Shown: positions 1,237-20,000, counted from the stretch's first letter. The stretch: DNA of 20,000 nucleotides from Protoeuglena noctilucae (GCA_958009085.1 OY253679.1:989571-1009570), one strand, 5' to 3'. The notes: generated by a model not told the origin, from the letters alone. Translations and numbers: made by a program.

Positions 1237-1536
1237 GAGATGTGAGATCGGGATGTGGGCAGTGAGCCCTGCTGCGCCTGTACGTGCTTGCTTGTGTCCT
1301 ATGCATGGCTGTGGCATGCTTACTGCCGCTGCTGCTGCCGTCAGTGATCTTGAAAGCGATTGCATGACAGACGCAGCAGCCAGCCTCGTGCGAGTGTTTC
1401 AACAGCGCCCTTTGCTCTCCCTACAACATCTCTCCCCCGTCCCTGCCCCTCCCGCATGCGTCCAATCAAACACACCCCACCCTCTCTCCCCCTCCTGCAT
1501 ACGTGTTGTCAACCACATCCCTTTCCCATCTCCCCC

Positions 1537-4500
1537 TCACGCGTGCTCCAGCGTGGCTGCCCCCATCACGCTCTCCAAATACGCGTCCCCACTCGCGTCG
1601 CGCCTCAGATCAGAGACCAGGGAACGGGAGCGGGAGAGGAGGGCATCCGCAGAAAGCGTGTCCAGGGGCTGCGTGTGATGGGCGGGAGAGGTGGGGGGTG
1701 AGGGTGGCAGTGGGGGTGGCAGTGGGGGTGGCAGTGGGGGTGGCAGTGAGAGATGAGCAGCGTTGCGCTCAGATGCGCCGTATTACTGTCCACTCCACAC
1801 CCACGCTCACCCCACCTCCCATCCCACCCCAACCACCCAGGCCCCCCCACACACACTCACCAGCTCCGCAAAATCCCTCAAAAACTTCCTCAGCCGCGCC
1901 CTCCCCCCCCTCTCCCCCTCCCCCTCCCCCCTCCCCCTCTCTCCCCCTCTTGCGCCCCCCCTCCCTCCCCTCCAACTCCTTCGCCTTCACTCTCGCCGCC
2001 TCCACCACTGCTTTGGGGAAGTTGGCATACTCCGCGACGTGAATGCCGAAGGACTGGTCGCACGCGCCCTCTCTGACCTGGTAGAGCATCGTCAGTCGGC
2101 CCGTGTCAGAATCCACGGCCGTCTCCACGTGACTGGGGGGGAATGAGTGGGGGAGCGAGGGAGTGAGGGAGTAATGGATGGGGGATAGAGTTGGGATGTG
2201 TTGTGTTGTGTGGAGATGAGGGTGGAGTGGGAAGTGAGTGAGGAGGGCATAGGTGAACGAGTGAGGTGGGGGGTGCATGGGCACTGACTGACTGATCCCT
2301 CACGCTGTCATCCGCCCCCACTGCCCCCCTCAACACCATCCACACCCCACACACTTACCCCTTACACACACACCCGCACACTTAACCACTCTCCATCTCC
2401 CCCTCACCGGTTTGCCACCCCCACTGCCCCCCTCAGCGCCGTCAGTTCGTGGAAGTGCGTGGCGAACAGCGTCGGCGCCCCCACGCGCTCCATCAGATGC
2501 TCGGATATGGCCCACGCGAGACCAAAGCCATCGTAAGTGCTGGTGCCGCGACCCAATTCGTCGATGATGACCAATGAACGACTGCTGGCGCCCTTGAGGA
2601 TCGAGGCGGTCTGCGGGGGGGGAGGGGGGAGTGGGTGAGGAGGTAGTTGTGGAAAGTAATGGTGAGGATGAAGGGGGGTGGTGAGGGGGTGGGGCGATCT
2701 CAGCCATGACCGCATCTCTGTTACATGCATTGCCACTAGTAGTAGTGGTAGTAATGCTTGTGACAAATCATCACTATCAGTATCTACCCATCCCCTCACC
2801 TCCACCATCTCCGGTATGAATGCATCCCTGTCCTCATCATTATCATTATTAGCTAATAATCACAATCACATCCTCACCTCCAGCATCTCGGCCATGAACG
2901 TCGACACCCCCCTCAGCTGGCTGTCCCCCGCGCCCACCCTGGCAAAGATGGCGTCGCGCACGGGGATGGTCGCGGAATCGCAGGGGACGAAGCACCCCAC
3001 CTGCGCCATCAACACGCACACCCCCACCTGCCTGCGGGGGGGGTTGGAGGTGAGGGGGGGTTGATGGGGGGTGGTAACGAGGGGTGGTGATGTGCGATAG
3101 TGGTGGTTATGATGGTTATAAGGGCCCCAACCATGCACCCATTCAACCACTTCCATCCCTCACCTGATGAATGTGCTCTTCCCTCCCATGTTGGGGCCGG
3201 AGATGATCTGGAACCAACTCTCGCCCTTCCTGTGGGTGTGGGGGAGAGAGTGTGTGGGTGGATGGGTGTCAGTCACACACACCACAGTATGACAAACATA
3301 ACAGCCACTGTACTACCCCAGCCACCTCATCACGCAGTCGTTCCTGATGAACTCCACCCCATCTAGTTGCCAATCAATGTAATCAGTGACATTCAAATAC
3401 CCCCACTCATCTCACCTCATCACGCAGTCGTTCTTGATGAACTCCACCCCGTCCTGCGCCTCCAGGCACGGGTGGCGGCACCCCACCAGCTCCAGCGACC
3501 CCCCATCCGCATCTTGCATGCTCGCCCGGACGTATGGGGTGGGCGCGGATGCGGACAGATCGGCGAATCCCACCAGCACATCCAGCTCTGCCAGAAGAGA
3601 CGAGACGCCCTCCCACACTTCCACGAACGTCGACGCCACCGAGACGACCTGCGGGGGGGATTGAGGAAGGGGAGGGGGGGATGAGGGGTGTGTGGGTGGG
3701 TGAAGGGGTGGGATGCGGTGGTGTGGTGGTGGTGGGGTGGTGAGTGTGGCGAGCGGGGGTGGTGCGGTTGTGCGGGGTAGCGAGGGGTCGTGCGATTGCA
3801 ATTGCGATTGCGACATGCAGCATGCGATGCTGTGCTGTGCACATGGCACCCCCATGTCAACTTAACCCAATCCTCTCCCCCATCCACTCCACCCATCTCT
3901 CGCCTGCTCCACCAGCGCCTTCTGCCGGTCGTGGCAGTCCGCATCTATTACATCTACCTCCATCCACACTGTCCATACCCCCATCCACCCCTCTCGCCTG
4001 CTCCACCAGTGCCTTCTGCCTGTTCTGATAGTCCGCCTCGATCGCCTGCAGCTGCTCTGCTGCCCTGCGCATGCGCCAGCTGGTGAACTTGGTGCCGTCC
4101 TTGCGAGTCTCCAGAATGGTGAAGTCGCCGCCGCTGTAGAGATGGGGGGAGTGGATGGGGGTTGGGGTGGGGAGATGAGGTGTCATGGCAGTGCGGTGTG
4201 CAATGTGCGATGGGAGGCAAGGGGGAGAGTGATAGGGTGATGACTGGTGGTGACTGATCACCGTCACCCATATCAACGTGAAATATATCACACCCCATGA
4301 TCGCAATCATTTGAGTTTCTTGCGGCACGCCTTCTCCATCAACCCACCCACCCATCACCACTACCACCACCCATATAATTGTGACATATATCACCCCCTA
4401 TAGTGATAATCACCTGAGTTTCTTGCGGCAGGCCTTCTCCTCCTTTGCCGTGATGCGCAGGCACCGGGTGCGCTGGTTCTGGAATCTGTGCCACTCCAGC

Positions 4501-7500
4501 TTCACGGTCTTGTCCAGCTGCAGGCCCAGAGAAGACGCGGCCTGCTGGGCAGCCGCGGAGATCTGGGGGGGGAGAGGGGGGGTGGGGATGGGGCAGAGGT
4601 GAGGGGGTTGGATGGGGGAAGCGATGGGGGTGGCATACGAGGGCAGTGGAGGGACTAGCCGCACAAAGGGACAGATCGGCAAGTTAACAGCGCAGTGCCC
4701 ACCCTCCCCTCCACAACAAGCCAATCCACACCCACCATGCACAACCCGCTCCACTCTCCCCATCATTCACAACCACCCCCACCCCTCACCTCCGCCTCCA
4801 CCTCGGCCTTCCTCGCCGCCAGCTCCTCCAGGTCCGGCGAGTACCTGGGGCATATGACGTACTCGTCGGGCACCTTGTCCAGGTCCACGGCAGCCTCCAA
4901 AAGGGACTCGAACTTCTGTGGGGGTGGGGATGAAGATGGGGGTGTGATGGGGATGGGGAGGGGGTGCATGGGGGGGGGAAGGTGCATGGTGCGGTGGCAG
5001 GGGTGGGTGGATGGGGCAGCGGCAGTGGCTCTCTCGTTCTCACCCACTCCATCGCTGGTGCACGTGCGTTCACGCACCCTCCCTCACCCCATCACTGCCA
5101 CTCACTCCCTCACCCACTCTCAGTGCCACTCATTCCACATACACATATACACACAACCCCCCCAACTCACCTGCAGGTGGTCGGCGTCGTGTGCCTGCGC
5201 CATCACTGCCACTGACCCACTCCTTTACAACCACTCTCACTCATTCCATATCCACATACATGTATTCCCATTCACCTGCAGGTGGTCGGCGTCGTGCGCC
5301 TGCGCGAGGGGGTCGCAGAATCTCGACACCAAATACGCGGCGTGGGGACCCTCGTGGTCCCTCAGCACGCCCTCGATCACGGGGAGGCGGGAACTGGCGC
5401 GGTAGAGCTGGCAGAGATCTGTGGATGAGGGGGGGTGAGGGAGAGGGGGAGTGAGTGGATGAGGGAACTGGCGCAGTAGAGCTGGCAGAGATTTGAAGAT
5501 GGGGGGGGAGTGAAGTGAGGGTGGGGTGAGGGGAAGTGGGTGAGAGAAAGTGGGTAACCGCGTCTCGCAACCATGCCCAACACCCCCACTCTTGTACCCA
5601 TTTCCTCTCTCACTCCCCTCTCTCTCACCCGCGAGCGTGGCCCTCTTCCTGTCCAGCTTGCGCGTGATTCTCTCCACGTCCGGCATCCCCCGCAGCTGCA
5701 CGTCCCTCAGCTGCCCCCGCATCTCCGCGTCAGACACCATGGACTCCACCACATCCAGGCGACGGTCCACCTCCTGAGTGGGGAGAGGAAGGGGTGGGGA
5801 TGCATGGGATGGTGGAGCATGTGTGATATGCGATGCAGTGCAGTGCATGGTGTGCATCTCGATGTGAGACAAACAAGCAAGGCGACAGGTAAGCTGGCGC
5901 ATGCACTCCCATCCCACTACCACTACATTCTCCCCTCACCCATGCCCCTCATCCCCCCCCCACCCCACCCCACCCCACCCCCCACCCATAATCATCACCT
6001 GCACGTCCCTGAGCGGCTGCTTGAGCCACGTCCGCAGCAGCCTCCTCCCCATGGGCGTCCTGGCCCTCCCCATGATGCCTAACAGCGAGAATGCGTCGTT
6101 GGCATCCTGCTTAGATGGCATCACGTGCAGTGCTCTCTGTGCCTCGGCATCCAGTCGCATGAAACGACCGGGGTCGTGCAAATACAGGTGGTACTTGTTG
6201 AGGTTGGAGGCGTCGGCGAGGAGGTCGAGGAAGGAGACCACGGCGGCCAGGGGGGGGAGGGCGGGGGGGCTGGGGGGGGCGGGGGGGGGGGGGGGTGGGA
6301 GTGGGAGTGGGGGTGGCAGTGAGGGTGAGGGTGGGGGGAGGTTGAGGGTAGCGGTGAGGGCGGCAGTGACTGGGGTGGGCAAAAGAGCAAGAGAGCATCA
6401 CTGGCGTTGCATGTCGTGCGGTATCACACTGCCACCCAAACACCCCCATTCACCCCCCTCCCCCATCCTCACCGGTCCAGCACTGGCCGGTAGAGTTCGA
6501 CCGTGTCCCCCTTCAGCAGCTTGGCCAGGTCCTGCTCCAGGTCAGCGGTCCTGGGGGATGGGATACGAACAGACACATTTGATGAATGCCAGGCATAGAG
6601 AAGAGGAGTTGCAGTGTGCTTGCGAGTGACGGAGTGACGGAGTGACTCAGGCATGGAGTGATGGTGACTGCGACGATGATGGTGATGGCTGCAAAACCGC
6701 AGGCATGGCCACACAACACGACAACACTTGAGCAAGCATTCAAACACACACATCCACTCACTTGAACATGGCTTTGGGCTTCTCCGTGGCCAGCACCCCG
6801 CACCGCTCCAGCACCTCGAGCAATCGTCGATCGTCACTTGCGCCCCTCTCCGCCACCCCGTGCATCAACACGCACTCCTTGGCGCCGATCTGATTGGGAG
6901 AGGGGCGGGGGAAGTAGATGCGATGTATCAATCACATTCTGCACAAGCCCATCTCTTTGGATCACACAGCCAACAAAATCGCCCATGATACTCATACACC
7001 ACTTCATCTCACCTGCGCCACCAGTGCCTCCAGCTGGCAGAAGTGCTCGTCATCCAGGAAGGCGCACGCCCCCAGGGTGCGCGAGGTGGGGGTGCAGAAG
7101 GCGACCCCCATCGTGCGCGCCCCGTCCTGCACCGTCAGCGACGCGGCCATCACCACGGGGGCGTCCTCCATCAACGCAGTGCTGGGGGTGGGGGGAAAGA
7201 GAGAAGAGGGATGGCAATTGCATGGGGAGGGTCACAGTGCGACATGCATGCATGGGGCGAGGGAGGTACAAGGCGGGGGTGCGAGGCAGCACTCCACCAC
7301 TCGCTGGCCGCCCAGAGCTGAGCACGCTCACCATCGCCGACACCTAACATGATGCTAGGCAACTCATCCATCATTTCCCAGCATGACTGGTGCCACACCC
7401 TTCTCCCCGTCTCCCTCACCGGAAGAGGTCGTCCTCCAGGTCCCCCAGCTTCCCCGGCGAGCCCGTCCGCGCCAGCTGCCACGCCTGCCCCGACCCCTCG

Positions 7501-8106
7501 TAAATCTCCACCGTGTGGTCCGCGCGGCCCACCAGCATCTCCCGCAGCACCGTCTCAAACAGCGACGGGTTCAGCGTCGTCGTCGCCAGGCCGCCGGGGG
7601 TCTTGACGACCGCGGTCGTCTTGTAGAACTCGCGCGCGATCAGCGTCGCGTCCTCCCTGCGCGCGGCAGGGTCGGGGCGGGGACTCGCGGCGCGGCGAGT
7701 TGTGGTTCTCTCAATCGCAAAGCTTGCGCGCCTCGCCCCCGCACCCGTGGACCGTGTAGCAGCTCGAGTCCTTGCTCTTGTGGTGGAAGAACCTGCGAAA
7801 AAAAGACACGGATGCGAAGCGCGATCCGGCGGGCGCGCGGTCGGCGCGGCGAGCAAGCGCAGCGTGCGGCAGCGCGCGATGGTGCCGGCGCGCCCTGCGC
7901 GGCGATGGCGGCCGGGCGCGCACCGGATGAGGTTGGGCTCCTGCGGCAGCGTCCGATACCAGCTGCTGAAGCCACGGGCTGCGGGCACGAGGCGCGCGCG
8001 AGGCCTTGAGAGGATCCGTGCGCTCGCACGACCGCGCAGGGCCTCTCGCTCCGCAACGCTCACCCGTTCTATCATCCACGTCATATTTGGGGGCGCCGCT
8101 CGCCAT
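1537..8106 (-). CDS. MSH2: DNA mismatch repair protein MSH2, 19 exons, about 928 aa
   Basis: Exons 8064-8106, 7924-7978, 7745-7792, 7420-7656, 7013-7181, 6762-6889, 6473-6550, 5999-6269, 5629-5773, 5276-5418, 4790-4915, 4414-4562, 3998-4133, 3416-3648, 3164-3229, 2878-3031, 2408-2610, 1861-2132, 1537-1668. Motifs: GSPG, FMRLD, WLKQPL, LETRKDG, RHPCLE, Walker [61 protein letters not shown]. One extra base falls in a G-run of exon 18. Confidence 0.97.
1702..1748. repeat. 12-bp tandem repeat (GGGTGGCAGTGG) x about 4 in the last MSH2 intron
   Basis: Directly visible: gggtggcagtgg gggtggcagtgg gggtggcagtgg gggtggcagtg. Confidence 0.9.
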
Positions 8107-8487: not shown

Positions 8488-9463
8488 ATGGGCCTCGACG
8501 TCCTGCACGATGCGGTCCTGAGTCACGCGGACATCGACAGCCAGGCCCCGGAGCTGTCCATGCGGGGCCTCGCGTCGCAGTGGCACTCCCAGCCATCGCA
8601 GGCCGTCACCGAAGCGTCGGCGAGGGAGTCCGCGGTCGGGGATCGGAGTCACGTTCGCGCCGATGCGCCGACATCAGCGCTGCGGGACCCGCCGGACGCG
8701 CCCGAGGCGCCGGGCCGCCCCGAGTGCCCGTGCGGGGGAGGGCCGTGCGTGGAGCGCGTGTCGCACACGGCCGCCAACCCCGGTGCGTCGAGTCGTGCGA
8801 TGACTGGGACGATGAATGGCGGCGTGCGCGTCGCGTGTTGAGACGTGGATGGGCTGATCGCTGTCCCCGGTGGGTGCAGGGCGCGTGTTCCTCAAGTGCC
8901 CTCTGAAGGGGGCGGCGCAGTGCAAGTTCTTCAAGTGGGCGGACCAGATCCCCGGCTACCGACCGAGCAGCGCGGCGGCGAAGGCGGGCGGGAAGGCCGG
9001 GCCCGATGCTGCCCCGGGCAGCGGCGACGCGGGGGCGGGCGAGGAGCGTGCAAGGAAGCGGCGACGGGCGACGCTGGCGGGACATCCCGGGCAGCCGTTC
9101 GACATGAAAGGGGGCGCCTCGGGTGCGGACGGCACGGCTGTGGAGGGTGGGGGTGTTGCTACCGCGGAGGGAGCGCCGGTGCGGAGGGAGGGCGGGGCGG
9201 ACAACACGTGCTTCGTGTGCGGCGCCCCCGGCCACTGGGCGAGGGACTGCCCCCAGGTGAGCCACCACGGCTACGTTGTGATGCCGGGGCGACGCTGACC
9301 CGGACAGTCACAGAAGAAGCTGATGTCCACCCTCCGCCCGCAGCGCGACGCGCCTGGCCGGCGGTCTTCGCGGGGAGAGCCGGGGCATCCGGCGGGACAA
9401 GCATCTACGGTGTGCTTCAAGTGTCATGCGCCAGGCCACTGGGCGAAGGACTGCCCCGCGTGA
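8488..9463 (+). CDS. GRF-type zinc finger plus two CCHC zinc knuckles, about 263 aa, 3 exons
   Basis: Exons 8488-8782, 8880-9256, 9344-9463 with GT-AG introns. Splicing rebuilds PECPCGGGPCVERVSHTAANPGRVFLKCP...CKFFKWAD (zf-GRF). Knuckles are CFVCGAPGHWARDC and CFKCHAPGHWAKDC; TGA at 9461-9463. Confidence 0.88.
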
Positions 9464-9812: not shown

Positions 9813-12764
9813 ATGCCCACCGCCAAGGATGTCAAGGGCAAGGATGTGAAGTCGCTGAGCCCGGAGGTGGAGGCGGAGCGCGCGAGGAAGGCCGCCGAAA
9901 TCGAGGACGCGCGGCGTCGCGAGCAGCAGCGCCTCCGCGAGGCCGAGCGAGCGCGCAAGGAGAAGCTCGCCAACATCAAAAGTCGCAGCGTCCTGAATCT
10001 CAGCCCAGAGGTGAGCGCTTGTCCTCTAGCTCGCTTGCTGTGCGCGATGTTACTTGCTATAGGGCGACCCGTGCACCTCAGCCCAGAGTTTAGCATTTGG
10101 CCTCTCGCGTTCCCACTCTGCGCGGGGCCACATGCTTGGGCGACCCGTGCGGCCCAGCGAGGACGCTTGCGAGCGCCTCTCTGTGCAGGTGGAGGCGGCG
10201 CGTGCCACGCGGGCCAAGGAGATTGAGGAGGCGCGAGTACGGAAGGAGCGGGCTTTGAAGGAGGAGGAGCGGGCGAGGCAGGAGGCGCTGTCGCAGGTCA
10301 CGGGCAAGGACGAGAAGTCCCTGAGTCCCGCCGTCCTCGAGCTGCGCGCCAAGATGGCGGCAGAGATCGAGGAGGCGCGGGTCCGGAAGGAGCGGGCTTT
10401 AAAGGAAGAGGTGAGGGGCACAGCGCAGTAAGGCCACTGTCTGTCTCTTCACTCCCTGTTCGCCCGACAGCGTGGATGTCCCGCCCATCGCTGCAGGAGA
10501 GGGCACGACAGGAGTACCTGGCCACGGTCAAGGGCCGGGATGAGAAGGCCCTGCCACCCGAGATCGAGGAGCTGCGTGCCAAGAAGGCGACGGAGATTGA
10601 GGAGGCACGAGTGCGGAAGGAGAGAGCTCTGAAGGAAGAGGCGAGGGGTGCAGCGCTGGGCGGGCGTGGCCGGCCATGCTGCGCCTGCTTTGTCACAAAG
10701 CTTGGCCCCGCAGCGCTCTGCGCTTCTGTCATGTGTCGCTTCTTCCATACATCTCTGTCTCCATGTGTCTCATCGCCCTGGCCATTTCCAGGAGAGGGTA
10801 CGGCAGGAGTACCTGGCCACTGTCAAGGGCAGAGATGAGAAAGCCCTGACGCCCGAGATCGAGGAGCTGCATGCGAAGAAGGCGACGGAGATTGAGGAGG
10901 CGCGGGTGCGGAAGGAGCGGGCCCTGAAAGAAGAGGTGAGAGGGCTGCAGCGCTGGGCGGGCGTGGCAGCGCTGGGCGGGCGTGGCTTCGCTGCGCCTGC
11001 TCTCTTAAGAGCGTGACCGTTGCAATACTCTGCAAATCTATCCTGCACTGCTCGCTCCATGCTCTCTGTCTCCATGTGCCCCTCTGTCCCGCTCATCGCT
11101 GCAGGAGAGGGCGCGGCAGGAGTACTTGGCGACCGTCAAGGGCCGGGATGAGAAGGCCCTGACGCCCGAAATCGAGGAGCTGCGCGCGAAGAAGGCAGCA
11201 GAGATCGAGGAGGCGCGGGTGCGGAAGGAGCGGGCCCTGAAAGAAGAGGTGAGAGGGCTGCAGCGCTGGGCGGGCGTGGCAGCGCTGGGCGGGCGTGGCT
11301 TCGCTGCGCCTGCTCTCTTAAGAGCGTGACCGTTGCAATACTCTGCAAATCTATCCTGCACTGCTCGCTCCATGCTCTCTGTCTCCATGTGCCCCTCTGT
11401 CCCGCTCATCGCTGCAGGAGAGGGCGCGGCAGGAGTACTTGGCGACCGTCAAGGGCCGGGATGAGAAGGCCCTGACGCCCGAAATCGAGGAGCTGCGCGC
11501 GAAGAAGGCAGCAGAGATCGAGGAGGCGCGGGTGCGGAAGGAGCGGGCCCTGAAAGAAGAGGTGAGAGGGCTGCAGCGCTGGGCGGGCGTGGCAGCGCTG
11601 GGCGGGCGTGGCTTCGCTGCGCCTGCTCTCTTAAGAGCGTGACCGTTGCAATACTCTGCAAATCTATCCTGCACTGCTCGCTCCATGCTCTCTGTCTCCA
11701 TGTGCCCCTCTGTCCCGCTCATCGCTGCAGGAGAGGGCGCGGCAGGAGTACTTGGCGACCGTCAAGGGCCGGGATGAGAAGGCCCTGACGCCCGAAATCG
11801 AGGAGCTGCGCGCGAAGAAGGCAGCAGAGATCGAGGAGGCGCGGGTGCGGAAGGAGCGGGCCCTGAAAGAAGAGGTGAGAGGGCTGCAGCGCTGGGCGGG
11901 CGTGGCAGCGCTGGGCGGGCGTGGCTTCGCTGCGCCTGCTCTCTTAAGAGCGTGACCGTTGCAATACTCTGCAAATCTATCCTGCACTGCTCGCTCCATG
12001 CTCTCTGTCTCCATGTGCCCCTCTGTCCCGCTCATCGCTGCAGGAGAGGGCGCGGCAGGAGTACTTGGCGACTGTCAAGGGCAGAGATGAGAAAGCCCTG
12101 ACGCCCGAAATCGAGGAGCTGCGCGCGAAGAAGGCAGCAGAGATCGAGGAGGCGCGGGTGCGGAAGGAGCGGGCCCTGAAAGAAGAGGTGAGAGGGCTGC
12201 AGCGCTGGGCGGGCGTGGCAGCGCTGGGCGGGCGTGGCTTCGCTGCGCCTGCTCTCTTAAGAGCGTGACCGTTGCAATACTCTGCAAATCTATCCTGCAC
12301 TGCTCGCTCCATGCTCTCTGTCTCCATGTGCCCCTCTGTCCCGCTCATCGCTGCAGGAGAGGGCCCGGCAGGAGTACTTGGCGACTGTCAAGGGCAGAGA
12401 TGAGAAAGCCCTGACGCCCGAAATCGAGGAGCTGCGCGCGAAGAAGGCGGCAGAGATCGAAGAGGCACGAGTGCGGAAGGAGCGGGCCTTGAAGGAAGAG
12501 GTGAGGGGCACAGCGCAACAGCGGCCGGGCTCGCCATGGATGCGCGCAGCAGCTCTGTCACAGAGCGTGCCCCCTGCAGCAGCTGCTGACTGCCTGTCGA
12601 CTGTTCATTCGGTTCGTCCACCAGCCTGGATGCCCCGTTCATCGCTGCAGGAGAGGGCACGGCAGGAGTACCTCGCCACGGTCAAGGGCCGGGACGAGAA
12701 GGCTCTGTCCCCAGAAATCGAGGAGATACGAGCTAGACTTGCAGCGGGCCAGACCGTCGCGTAG
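9813..12764 (+). CDS. Uncharacterised E/K/R-rich helical protein with 48-aa repeats, about 513 aa, 10 exons
   Basis: Exons 9813-10010, 10189-10410, 10497-10640, 10792-10935, 11105-11248, 11418-11561, 11731-11874, 12044-12187, 12357-12500, 12651-12764, all phase 0. Seven 144-nt exons each encode ERARQEYLATVKGRDEKALTPEIEELRAKKAAEIEEARVRKERALKEE or a close variant; many differences between copies are synonymous. The start codon is less certain. Confidence 0.85.
10792..12500 (+). repeat. 313-bp tandem repeat (144-nt exon + 169-nt intron), about 5.5 near-identical copies
   Basis: Exon starts recur at 10792, 11105, 11418, 11731, 12044 and 12357 (period 313); the introns between them look identical. 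Confidence 0.97.
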
Positions 12765-16843: not shown

Positions 16844-18594
16844 TCAGACGTCAGGCGGACTTGGCGGCTTGGACGGCTCGGGTTGAGTCTTGGGGAGTGG
16901 CTGTGAGCCCTTGCGCTCCCAGTAGGCTCTTTCGACCTCCGGGGCGTCCATCTCCGATGCGGGGACCCACTGATCATGGTCAGCTGAGTAGCCAGTCCAC
17001 CGGATCAGGTACTCCAGCACGTTCACTTGCTTCCGATTCTTCCGCTTCTTGGTTTAGCGGTGAGCAAGGATGTCCTGCACCTCGAAGTGCTCGCCTCCGT
17101 CCTCATCGAGAGTGACAGGTGGCGGCTGGTCAGTGTGCAGCTCTTCTGCAGCCCTCAGGAACTTCTCAGAGAGTCTCATGGGGTGCACGTGCTTGATGTT
17201 GATCGTCGGATGCTTGTCTGCCATCTTGTTGCCAAAGAGGGTCAGGTCCAGCTTGACTGCTGTGACGCTGCCGTCCTCCCCCCGGGTGACCGAATCCACC
17301 TGGAACGGTCCCGACTTGCGGCTAGCCAACTTGGCACTAGCGCTGGTAGCAAGGGGTCCCGTCAAGCGCGACGCATCAACATACACCCAATCGCCTGGCG
17401 CGATGGCAGGTGCAGGGCGGCGCTTGCGGTCGGCAGTGGCCTAAGTGGCGTCTCGCGCGTGCTCTAGGACCGCGCGGATCTGCTGGAGGCGCTGCTCGCG
17501 CTCATACGCAGCAAAGGCAGCTGTGCTGTCAGCGATGGCTGCTTTGTGCAGCATAGCAAGGGGCTGGTTGGGCCGGCGGTTCAGCAAGACCGCGATGGGT
17601 GGCTCTTTGAGGCCATTGTGCACGCTGCTGTTGTAAGCCTGCTCGACTATGGGCAGCCAAAGGTGCCAGTCAGAATGATCAGGCGCAACATAGTGGCGAA
17701 GGATGGTAGCCACGATACGGTTAGCAACCTCCGTTTGGCCATCAGTCTGGGGGTGATAGGCGGAGCTCATCTTGAGCTGCACCCCGTACAGCTTGTAGAG
17801 CTGCTGCCAATACGCGCTGAGGAACCGTGGGTCACGATCTGATACAACGCTGGTTGGCAGGCCAAAGGTCTTGAATAGCGTCGAGAACAGCAGTTGGGCT
17901 GTCTCCGCTGCAGTGATTGTGGTATTCACTGGGAAAAGGAAGAGCGCTTTGCTGAAACGGTCCACGACCGTGAGGATGGCGTCATGGCCAGAACTGCTGG
18001 TCGGGAGGCCCATGATAAAGTCGAGGCTGATGCTCTCGAAGGGCTCAGTGGGAACCGCTAACGGCTGCAGTAGGCCGTGAGGCGCTTGCGTGGAGTACTT
18101 GTGCTTTGCGCAGCTGGGGCATGTGCTGCAGTAGTCTTTGACATCGGCAGCCATCTTGGGCCAGTAAAAGTGCTCCTTGAGTTCGGCCAGAGTCTTGGCG
18201 ACGCCATGGTGCCCGCTGATGGGTGCATCGTGATACATGCGGAGCAATCGCTGCTTGAGCGCATTGTCATCGGGCACGCAAAGGCGTACGTGCGGCCCGT
18301 CGCGCTGGTACAGCAAATGGCCATCGGCTGTGGCATACTCGCCGTTTGGCGTAGCAGCCTGGTCGAGCATGCGCTTGTACCAGTCGTCTTGCTGACCCTT
18401 CTCAGCGATCTGTTGGACCAGCTCAGTGTGGTCGACAACCGCCACGGAGATGCTGTTCAGGGCAGCGGCAGCCTCACGCTGCGTGAAGACGCGGCTCAGG
18501 GCATCCTCGACGACTTGTTGCGTGCCAGGTCTGTGCTGGACGATTATGTCGTACTCTTGCAGAATATCGACCCAGCGGGCTCTCCGGCCGTGCA
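16844..18594 (-). pseudogene. pol: pol fragment: RNase H C-terminus, integrase, chromodomain; two in-frame stops
   Basis: RARWVDILQEYD...HRPG...DALSR; HHCC (HDAPISGHHG...CSTC); DDE core (LDFIMGLP, VSDRDPRF, HPQTDGQTE); KSGPFQV; chromodomain FEVQDILAHR*...LEYLIRWTGYSADHDQWVP. The three listed ORFs share one frame, broken by TAG at 17441-17443 and TAA at 17054-17056. Confidence 0.92.
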
Positions 18595-19046
18595 ACTGAC
18601 TGACTTTCCTTCAACAAGGCTCACAGCTAAGGTCGCTGACCTATCTCTTGCCACTCTTGCCCGGGGCCCTCGAGCAGTGGCTTCAGCTGCTTTGGCAGCG
18701 CCAGGGCCAGCAGCTACCAACACCAGGGAAGGTCGCATCAGCGGTGTAGCATACATCACCACCGCCTAGCCAAAAACAGGGCGAGGCCCTGGACCCGGCG
18801 AGCCGGTCAAGGGAGTGGTCCCTTGGGAAGTTACTGAGCAGGGCGAGGGGCCCTGGAGAGGACTGACTGACTCGCTTCAAAGGGTCCACAGCTTAGGCCT
18901 CAGGCCTATTGCTCGCCAGTTCTAGCCTATGACTAGGGGTCCGGGCCCTGGACCTGGCTTAAGCCGCTTTGGCAGCACAAGGGCCTATGCTACCAACACC
19001 CAAGAAGTTCGCATCGGCTGTGTAGTGTACGTCCGCACAGCCTAGC
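18595..19046. repeat. Two diverged direct repeats (18595-18770 and 18862-19046), each bounded by ACTGACTGACT
   Basis: Shared blocks in the same order: ACTGACTGACT, CTTCAA, CACAGCT.AGG, GGGCCCT, GGCTT.AGC.GCTTTGGCAGC, GCTACCAACACC, TCGCATC.GC.GTGTAG, GCCTAGC. Confidence 0.9.
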
Positions 19047-19700: not shown

Positions 19701-20000
19701 TTAGGGGTTAGGGTTAGGGTAAGGTTTTTTGGGTAGGTTAGGCAGGTGTAGGTTTGGGCAGGTCAGGTAGGTTAGGTAGTTAGGGTTAGGGTTAGGGTTA
19801 GGTCAGGGTTAGGGTTAGGGTTAGGGTTAGGGTTAGGGTTAGGGTTAGGGTTAGGGTTAGGGTTAGGGTTAGGGTTAGGGTTAGGGTTAGGGTTAGGGTT
19901 AGGGTTAGGGTTAGGGTTAGGGTTAGGGTTAGGGTTAGGGTTAGGGTTAGGGTTAGGGTTAGGGTTAGGGTTAGGGTTAGGGTTAGGGTTAGGGTAGGGT
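19701..20000 (+). repeat. Telomeric repeat array (TTAGGG)n with a degenerate proximal zone
   Basis: Perfect TTAGGG from about 19809 to 19994, variant repeats at about 19720-19808, G-rich strand running 5'->3' to the end of the sequence. Confidence 0.98.

Follow-up and report, generated by a model that had tools for sequence, protein, structure and literature searches.

Junction-spanning tandem duplications in the MSH2 introns of Protoeuglena noctilucae

Internal tandem duplications that include exon-intron boundaries were reportedly described by Gao and Lynch in PNAS in 2009. Recursive splice sites, also called ratchet points, are AG/GT sequences (the slash marking the splice point) that lie inside long introns of Drosophila and vertebrates. 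Here, the subject is the MSH2 gene in a stretch of 20,000 nucleotides from Protoeuglena noctilucae (GCA_958009085.1 OY253679.1:989571-1009570; the whole stretch is called the window below), where each of seven introns carries an echo, that is, a copy of the adjacent exon boundary. Several other systems resemble it. In the Rogers model, an intron is gained when a segment containing AGGT is duplicated in tandem (Hellsten et al., 2011, PMC3265369; Lehmann et al., 2010, PMC2891723). Introners are transposable elements that generate introns (Gozashti et al., 2022, PMC9860276). Small tandem duplications are known to arise when breaks with 3' overhangs are filled in (Schimmel et al., 2021, PMC8355091), and in the green alga Ostreococcus tauri long flanking duplications are described at sites of DNA integration (PMC8002553).

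The MSH2 echoes are best read as an example of a kind already known, the tolerated tandem duplication that spans a splice junction, found here at unusual density. They share with duplications of the Gao and Lynch type that they are short and intragenic, that a splice site is duplicated, and that splicing absorbs the result. They differ from these in that seven events of similar size (74-111 bp) lie in one gene, that no new intron is made, that the mRNA is unchanged, and that the outer site is used each time, as seen in RNA. As the Rogers model is outlined in the two papers cited, it too obtains two equivalent splice signals from a tandem duplication, the redundant copy being spliced out. Here, however, the duplication extends across a donor or acceptor that was already present and is not purely exonic, a pre-existing intron is lengthened, and the echo lies in its interior.

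The remaining comparisons are less close. The fill-in duplications, as characterized by Schimmel et al., are homology-independent, head-to-tail, and range from tens of bases upward, which makes them a plausible source of the MSH2 units; here, in contrast, the mechanism is one that we only infer, and no breakpoint signature outlasts a divergence of 14-35%. The introners, as presented by Gozashti et al., also occur in marine algae and also have direct repeats at intron ends. The 14 MSH2 introns, in contrast, hold no element family, and their repeat copies local sequence instead of being a target duplication around an insert. A mobile, introner-like family was therefore rejected, because blastn of the 14 introns all against all, within this window, returned only matches within single introns and one low-complexity match. 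Four echoes do present AG/GT or AG/GC within the intron, as ratchet points would. These introns are short (186-360 nt), however, the echo AGs mostly lack the C-rich tract of real acceptors, and the RNA, represented by assembled contigs, gives no sign of splicing intermediates; only upstream of the ~30-nt block would such an intermediate be distinguishable from unspliced echo. A search of the literature for junction-spanning duplications as a genome-wide feature, which did not extend to the 2009 paper of Gao and Lynch, found only work on intron gain.

Tandem structure and splicing of the echo-bearing introns

Gapped alignment of the first unit with the second at the six echoes of 5' splice sites reveals head-to-tail tandem duplications, with homology running along both the exon-derived and the intron-derived parts. 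The units are 74-111 bp long; six span a 5' splice site and one spans a 3' splice site. The layout at the 5' sites is an exon end (X), donor and intron start (B, 55-76 nt), followed by the copies of all three (X', donor copy, B'), and then by the remaining intron. On the sense strand, each 5' echo repeats the donor site and the 21-36 nt of exon that precede it, and is placed 52-76 nt into the intron. The seventh echo, in intron 6, repeats the acceptor and the 30 nt of exon that follow it, and is placed upstream of the real acceptor. Every echo sits on the side of the intron nearest its source exon, the 5' echoes occupying positions 49-105 of their introns and the 3' echo positions 136-172 of its 210-nt intron.

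Much of this had been proposed in a first-pass annotation of the window. When its seven pairs of copy and original were recomputed, the coordinates, identities and offsets (74-105 bases) all came out as first given, and a gapped scan of the gene returned exactly seven clusters. Its division of the echoes, into six that copy an exon 3' end and one that copies an exon 5' end, is upheld. It had also stated that adjacent intron sequence was often duplicated and had diverged further, and so it has, with substitutions at 14-35% and numerous gaps; alignments of the intron-derived parts reach 65-86%, that of intron 14 being barely alignable (23/67 nt). The recurrence of duplications of ~100 bp holds as well, with seven units of 74-111 bp in one gene.

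The lengths of the introns tell the same story. The echo introns average 275 nt, or 183 nt when one unit is subtracted from each, and the seven echo-free introns average 194 nt. The near equality of the last two figures means that each duplication lengthened an otherwise ordinary intron. The seven echoes are probably the inner copies of small tandem duplications across the junctions of pre-existing introns, which have been tolerated and do not represent a new splicing device.

Table 1. The MSH2 gene and its seven echo-bearing introns (window positions; slashes mark RNA joints and splice points; donor sequences on the sense strand).
Feature	Position	Strand	Length (nt)	RNA joint	Echo	Original	Identity	Offset	Remarks
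MSH2 gene	1537..7700	-							~16 exons; tblastn vs P0001 + splice-junction scoring
Intron 6	5419..5628	-	210	5418/5629	5463-5495	5389-5421	31/33	74	sole 3'-junction echo; echo AG now AA
Intron 7	4916..5275	-	360	4915/5276	5167-5200	5272-5305	33/34	105	donors: echo CAG/GTGAGT, real CAG/GTGAAT
Intron 9	4134..4413	-	280	4133/4414	4312-4337	4415-4440	25/26	103	echo donor destroyed, CAG/GT to CAA/AT
Intron 10	3649..3997	-	349	3647/3997	3897-3926	3991-4020	29/30	94	GC-AG intron; echo retains GC donor (GCGAGAG)
Intron 11	3230..3415	-	186	3228/3415, cut +1	3323-3360	3413-3450	37/38	90	donors: echo GAG/GTGGCT, real GAG/GTGAGA
Intron 13	2611..2877	-	267	2610/2878	2794-2820	2872-2898	23/27	78	weaker echo; echo donor GAG/GTGAGG same as real
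Intron 14	2133..2407	-	275	2132/2408	2315-2340	2418-2443	23/26	103	18/18 core; 10 exon bases adjoining donor diverged in echo

Some introns add detail to the table. The 74-nt unit of intron 6 is present in 2.1 copies over 5381-5534 (TRF period 74, 81% matches). The tandem units of intron 7 lie at ~5201-5305 and 5090-5200, and because the same 12-mer closes both, their boundaries are exact. The pair listed for intron 9 is the sharp block within a longer one, in which 4260-4337 copies 4363-4440 (78 nt, 79%). The RNA joint of intron 10 skips 349 nt and is canonical (GC..AG) only in the +1 register; beyond its sharp block, exon-derived homology extends ~28 nt further, to ~3954, at ~67%. The cluster for intron 13 in the gapped scan falls at 2780-2790. 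Separately, a GT donor lies 9 nt downstream of the GC donor used by intron 10; its use would add three residues, and it is unused.

These introns were defined in two ways. The exons were placed by tblastn of the closest relative found, P0001 (79% identity over the 79-aa exon queried), and then by scoring of GT/GC..AG junctions, which gave 14 MSH2 introns between ~7420 and 2133. A query of the 79-residue exon retrieves full-length MSH2 proteins with MutS domains, the best named MSH2 matches being those of green algae (Asterochloris 76%, Trebouxia 72%, Chlamydomonas 71%). RNA contigs, which come from two metatranscriptome runs of one study, confirm by their joints 8/14 introns to the base, including all seven that carry echoes; the eighth joint is 4562/4790. 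The homology model places MSH2 on the minus strand. One part of the gene model is less settled. In the penultimate exon (1860-1970, minus strand), homology to relatives changes reading frame within a C-rich low-complexity stretch (1894-1961), at which contigs also break; an extra small intron, a length error and a real difference are all candidates.

Could the echoes be matches by chance? The first and last 60 nt of exons were aligned locally with their own intron and, as controls, with all introns not adjacent to them (26 tests, 13 introns). For six echoes the score in their own intron is 19-33, and no control intron scores more than 13. Intron 6, for example, scores 28.5 where the control maximum is 9.5, intron 11 scores 33, and intron 14 scores 19 against 11; the echo of intron 13 is marginal in this test, at 11 against 10.5. 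These scores rule out chance. An ungapped scan of the whole 20 kb at offsets of 30-400 recovers six of the seven echoes, its other matches being only a protein (zinc-knuckle) repeat, a 313-bp array and the telomere. In a gapped scan of 1500-7800, the seven clusters that correspond to the echoes are the only local direct duplications in the gene.

Nor are the echoes artefacts of assembly. Over 1962-6248, an independent DNA contig of 4420 nt, whose run bears another study label, shows 0 substitutions and differs only by one 1-base gap at 5501; it carries the echoes unchanged. At 5501 itself, the length of a G-run differs by one base between the window and that contig.

The same duplicated sites can, of course, be followed into RNA. 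At 7/7 echo introns, and at the one echo-free intron with a joint, the RNA contigs join the outer, authentic sites. This, in turn, means that each echo leaves with its intron. The evidence here consists of assembled contigs, which drop rare variants, and none of the 15 joints listed out of 24 uses an inner donor. One RNA run (X11) also has contigs over pieces of introns, including 5068-5270, colinear with the DNA; these may be pre-mRNA or DNA carry-over, and they are uninformative on the use of the echoes.

Origin, persistence and rival explanations

What process might have left these structures? A small tandem duplication would arise in DNA, presumably by fill-in repair of a staggered break, and would by chance fall across the junction of an existing intron. 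The spliceosome would keep to the outer, original site, with the result that X' and B' become extra intron and the protein is unchanged. Such a duplication would be nearly neutral, its effect being an intron longer by one unit; one inside an exon would disrupt the gene. Splicing takes the first AG that follows the branch point, so that a duplicated acceptor is usually harmful. Duplications of 3' sites would therefore usually add sequence to the mRNA, which would account for the 6:1 excess of 5' echoes; the sole 3' echo has had its AG mutated to AA.

Once in place, the exon-derived part of such a duplication would stay recognisable because selection on the protein keeps the real exon unchanged and leaves only the echo free to drift. 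In the intron-derived part, both copies would drift, in sequence that is of low complexity and prone to indels. This matters when the two parts are compared. The exon-derived blocks have 18/202 mismatches, the intron-derived parts 81/339 aligned positions plus 71 gap columns (Fisher P=1e-5), and the first-pass annotation had proposed that the exon-derived part is kept similar by gene conversion or by function. The greater likeness of the exon part is real. The contrast, however, is not like for like, since one copy of the exon is frozen by protein selection and both copies of the intron drift. A neutral model with a frozen exon, in which the expected mismatches are computed from half of each intron's own divergence, predicts 25.3 mismatches where 18 are observed (Poisson P=0.083). 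The frozen-exon model thus accounts for most of the contrast, the excess similarity is marginal, and active upkeep is not established. Gene conversion or function may contribute, but neither is needed to explain the similarity.

The claim of a recurrent process that duplicates splice junctions fares similarly. Duplications of ~100 bp do recur; a targeting of junctions is not established, given short introns and detection bias. If ancestral introns measured ~100-250 nt and a unit ~95 nt, many of the placements that keep duplicated coding sequence out of the mRNA must cross a junction. Further, the gapped scan detected the intron-derived part alone in just 2/7 cases, so duplications that lack an exon anchor are harder to detect. 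That scan found no duplication confined to an intron in the MSH2 gene, at a sensitivity that is low for unanchored duplications, and detection bias may lie behind the all-junction pattern.

Several observations nonetheless weigh against a purely neutral account. All seven detectable duplications span a junction, and none lies within an intron only. The rest of the window (~11.4 kb scanned) is without a comparable case except one in the MSH2 3' UTR. The five sharpest echoes together show 6 mismatches, with an expectation of 16.4 (P=0.003, for a subset picked post hoc); moreover, gapped alignment understates the divergence of the introns, and the model ignores synonymous change in the exons, both of which would raise the expected number. 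Identity is also patchy. In intron 10, it is 29/30 beside the donor and ~67% in the next ~28 exon-derived nucleotides, and in intron 14 the 18/18 core stands amid exon-derived bases that have diverged. In every case, high identity falls off within 3-7 nt of the junction. Such patchiness suggests conversion tracts or local constraint; it leaves room for short conversion tracts or for a faster decay of low-complexity intron sequence, possibilities of which it demonstrates neither. Finally, 5/6 of the 5' echoes keep a GT or GC donor, at least two of these echo donors (introns 7 and 13) seem no weaker than the real ones, and the upstream donor wins all the same, for which the neutral model gives no reason.

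These observations invite other explanations, of which the nearest keeps the tandem origin and adds repeated gene conversion in short tracts, the exon being the effective donor that holds its copy near-identical. The deficit of mismatches in the five sharpest echoes and the patches in introns 10 and 14 are what such conversion might leave. Over all seven echoes, however, the deficit is not significant, and there is no reason for conversion tracts all to end within 3-7 nt of a splice junction. The blocks are only 18-38 nt, which is short for efficient recombination. Further, Trebouxia-like sequences share an echo of a 3' site that differs from the real site by lineage-specific single changes, with no co-variation. 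These facts together make conversion unlikely, though it is the strongest of the rivals. A larger departure would be to regard the echoes as functional splicing elements, be they decoy or alternative donors for unproductive isoforms, enhancers that recruit U1, or AG/GT ratchet points. The 5' echoes have kept GT or GC in 5/6 cases and AG/GT or AG/GC in 4/6, their blocks are more alike than the neighboring intron, and splicing in two steps, in either order, would yield the mRNA that is seen. Yet a neutral decay of ~12% per site already predicts that ~4.6/6 donors are kept. The RNA contigs have outer joints only at 7/7 introns, although minor forms would be hidden in them; the bases before the echo AGs, judged by eye, are purine-rich in 3/4 cases, unlike the C-rich tracts that precede real acceptors; and the offsets are a multiple of 3 in just 3/7, the in-frame 90-nt insert of intron 11 holding a stop. 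Intron 14 has lost the bases that adjoin its donor copy, and seven other MSH2 introns manage with no echo at all. Positive signs of decoy, alternative or recursive use were not seen in these contigs and sequences, and a functional role of this kind is very improbable. We give only a slightly better, still poor, chance to the broader proposition that the ~30-nt copies of exon ends are not passive relics but are kept exon-like, by conversion or by selection, as tandem donors that serve splicing. Were it true, the copies may act as AG/GT ratchet points or as U1-loading decoys that define short G-rich introns, and junction-spanning duplication would be a genome-wide route to such elements.

Two further explanations concern the events themselves. 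The mutation might be directed to junctions, if the G-rich first 50-80 nt of these introns (on the sense strand) favored R-loops or G-quadruplexes, and with them breaks just downstream of donors. The 5' halves of the echo introns are indeed G-rich on the sense strand, the count is six 5' echoes to one 3' echo, all six 5' duplications have their right-hand breakpoint 55-76 nt inside the intron, and the exon contributes little to each unit (21-52 nt). Selection against duplications of 3' sites explains the bias equally well, however, the number of events is seven, and no direct evidence for targeting was found. Targeting of this kind seems improbable to us; it would, in any case, be compatible with tolerated junction-spanning duplication and does not exclude it. 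The last candidate is that the introns themselves were born in the Rogers manner, from tandem duplication of an exonic AGGT segment. The exon ends are AG/GT-like, and most of the intron positions differ from those of Trebouxia-like MSH2. The anatomy, however, contradicts this. Under the model, the intron should close with a repeat of the end of the upstream exon and open with a repeat of the start of the downstream exon. The echoes here are internal, 52-76 nt from the donor and followed by another ~90-255 nt of intron, and the far exon is not echoed (7/7 far-side tests give scores no higher than the non-adjacent controls). Intron 10, further, has an echo at a position (residue 546, phase 0) that it has in common with relatives. 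We regard birth of this type as scarcely credible and have rejected it.

Relatives and the rest of the window

Is the pattern peculiar to this organism? P0001 is of no help here, because it sits on intronless contigs (L001, L002) and so supplies no orthologous introns. Full-length MSH2 genes on Trebouxia-like metagenome contigs, in contrast, have 15 introns. In one of the relatives, L018, intron 4 echoes an exon end (31/37) and intron 12 echoes an acceptor over 19 nt. This acceptor echo is common to L017-L020 and absent from L012, and its single changes relative to the real site, specific to lineages, are those weighed above against conversion. When intron ends that score at least 19 are counted, L018 has 2/28, L012 has 0/30, and the window has 6/26 plus the weak seventh. 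The cases in these relatives are both fewer and weaker. Thus, the type of event is not unique to Protoeuglena noctilucae; its density in the MSH2 gene of this organism is unusual.

Intron positions also can be compared. Just 1/14 is exactly common to the window, L012 and L018; it lies at P0001 residue 546, in phase 0, and bears an echo. The three genes have ~15 introns each, in the same order, and most of the other positions have a counterpart 4-60 nt away (697 vs 703, 765 vs 757, and 645 phase 2 vs 647 phase 0, among others). Between green-algal lineages, introns may have turned over heavily or slid, which could account for these near misses; coincidence is not formally excluded.

The window as a whole is GC-rich (59-75% per kb), its DNA is also present in marine metagenome runs (X7 and X8 contain only about half of its words), as fits a marine green alga, and an Rfam scan of its full length found no RNA family. 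Outside the gene, the scan for local duplications gave a low-complexity match at 671, a pair at 1441/1486 in the 3' UTR, and a zinc-knuckle repeat at 9210/9414. The 3' UTR pair belongs to a direct repeat at 1441-1530 (minus strand) with an offset of ~45 nt, in what is presumed to be the 3' UTR of MSH2. The zinc-knuckle repeat belongs to a gene at 8858-9460 (plus strand) that encodes both a GRF zinc finger and a zinc knuckle of the CCHC type. Another copy that resembles the knuckle stands 204 nt downstream (9208-9253 vs 9412-9457, 80%), in another frame and just after CAG/GTGAGC; it may be a second knuckle exon or a further junction-spanning duplication.

Larger repeats lie beyond. A tandem array at 10200-12760 (plus strand) has a period of 313 bp, with 5.5 copies at 97% identity and older copies at spacings of 230/295 bp. 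By eye, its unit holds an in-frame exon of ~144 nt (rich in glutamate, lysine and arginine, coiled-coil-like) with its own intron of ~169 nt, and it has no Pfam match; the array would be one in which whole exon-intron units were duplicated in tandem. A retrotransposon pol remnant at 17054-18610 (minus strand), ~1.2 kb from the telomere, has integrase zinc-binding and integrase core domains (Pfam E=1.7e-21, 3.6e-12) and a weak match to a Tf2-type SH3. The window ends in a telomere-type array at 19779-20000, degenerate from ~19700, with ~37 copies of GGGTTA (TTAGGG-type) whose G-rich strand runs to the window end. This means that the window abuts the end of a chromosome.

Implications for splice-site choice and intron size

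MSH2 of Protoeuglena noctilucae offers a compact record of small tandem duplications that have lengthened introns and created tandem splice sites, with the gene unharmed. Each of the seven is a natural experiment on splice-site choice, in which two donors compete with ~30 nt of identical upstream exon and a near-identical core, and the upstream donor is the one used. There is also a practical side, as echo donors such as that of intron 7 (CAG/GTGAGT) are likely to mislead gene finders. If the pattern were to hold genome-wide, it would follow that much of the small duplication tolerated by short-intron algae must cross splice junctions. This would bear on the evolution of intron size, on the origin of alternative donors, and on gene prediction.

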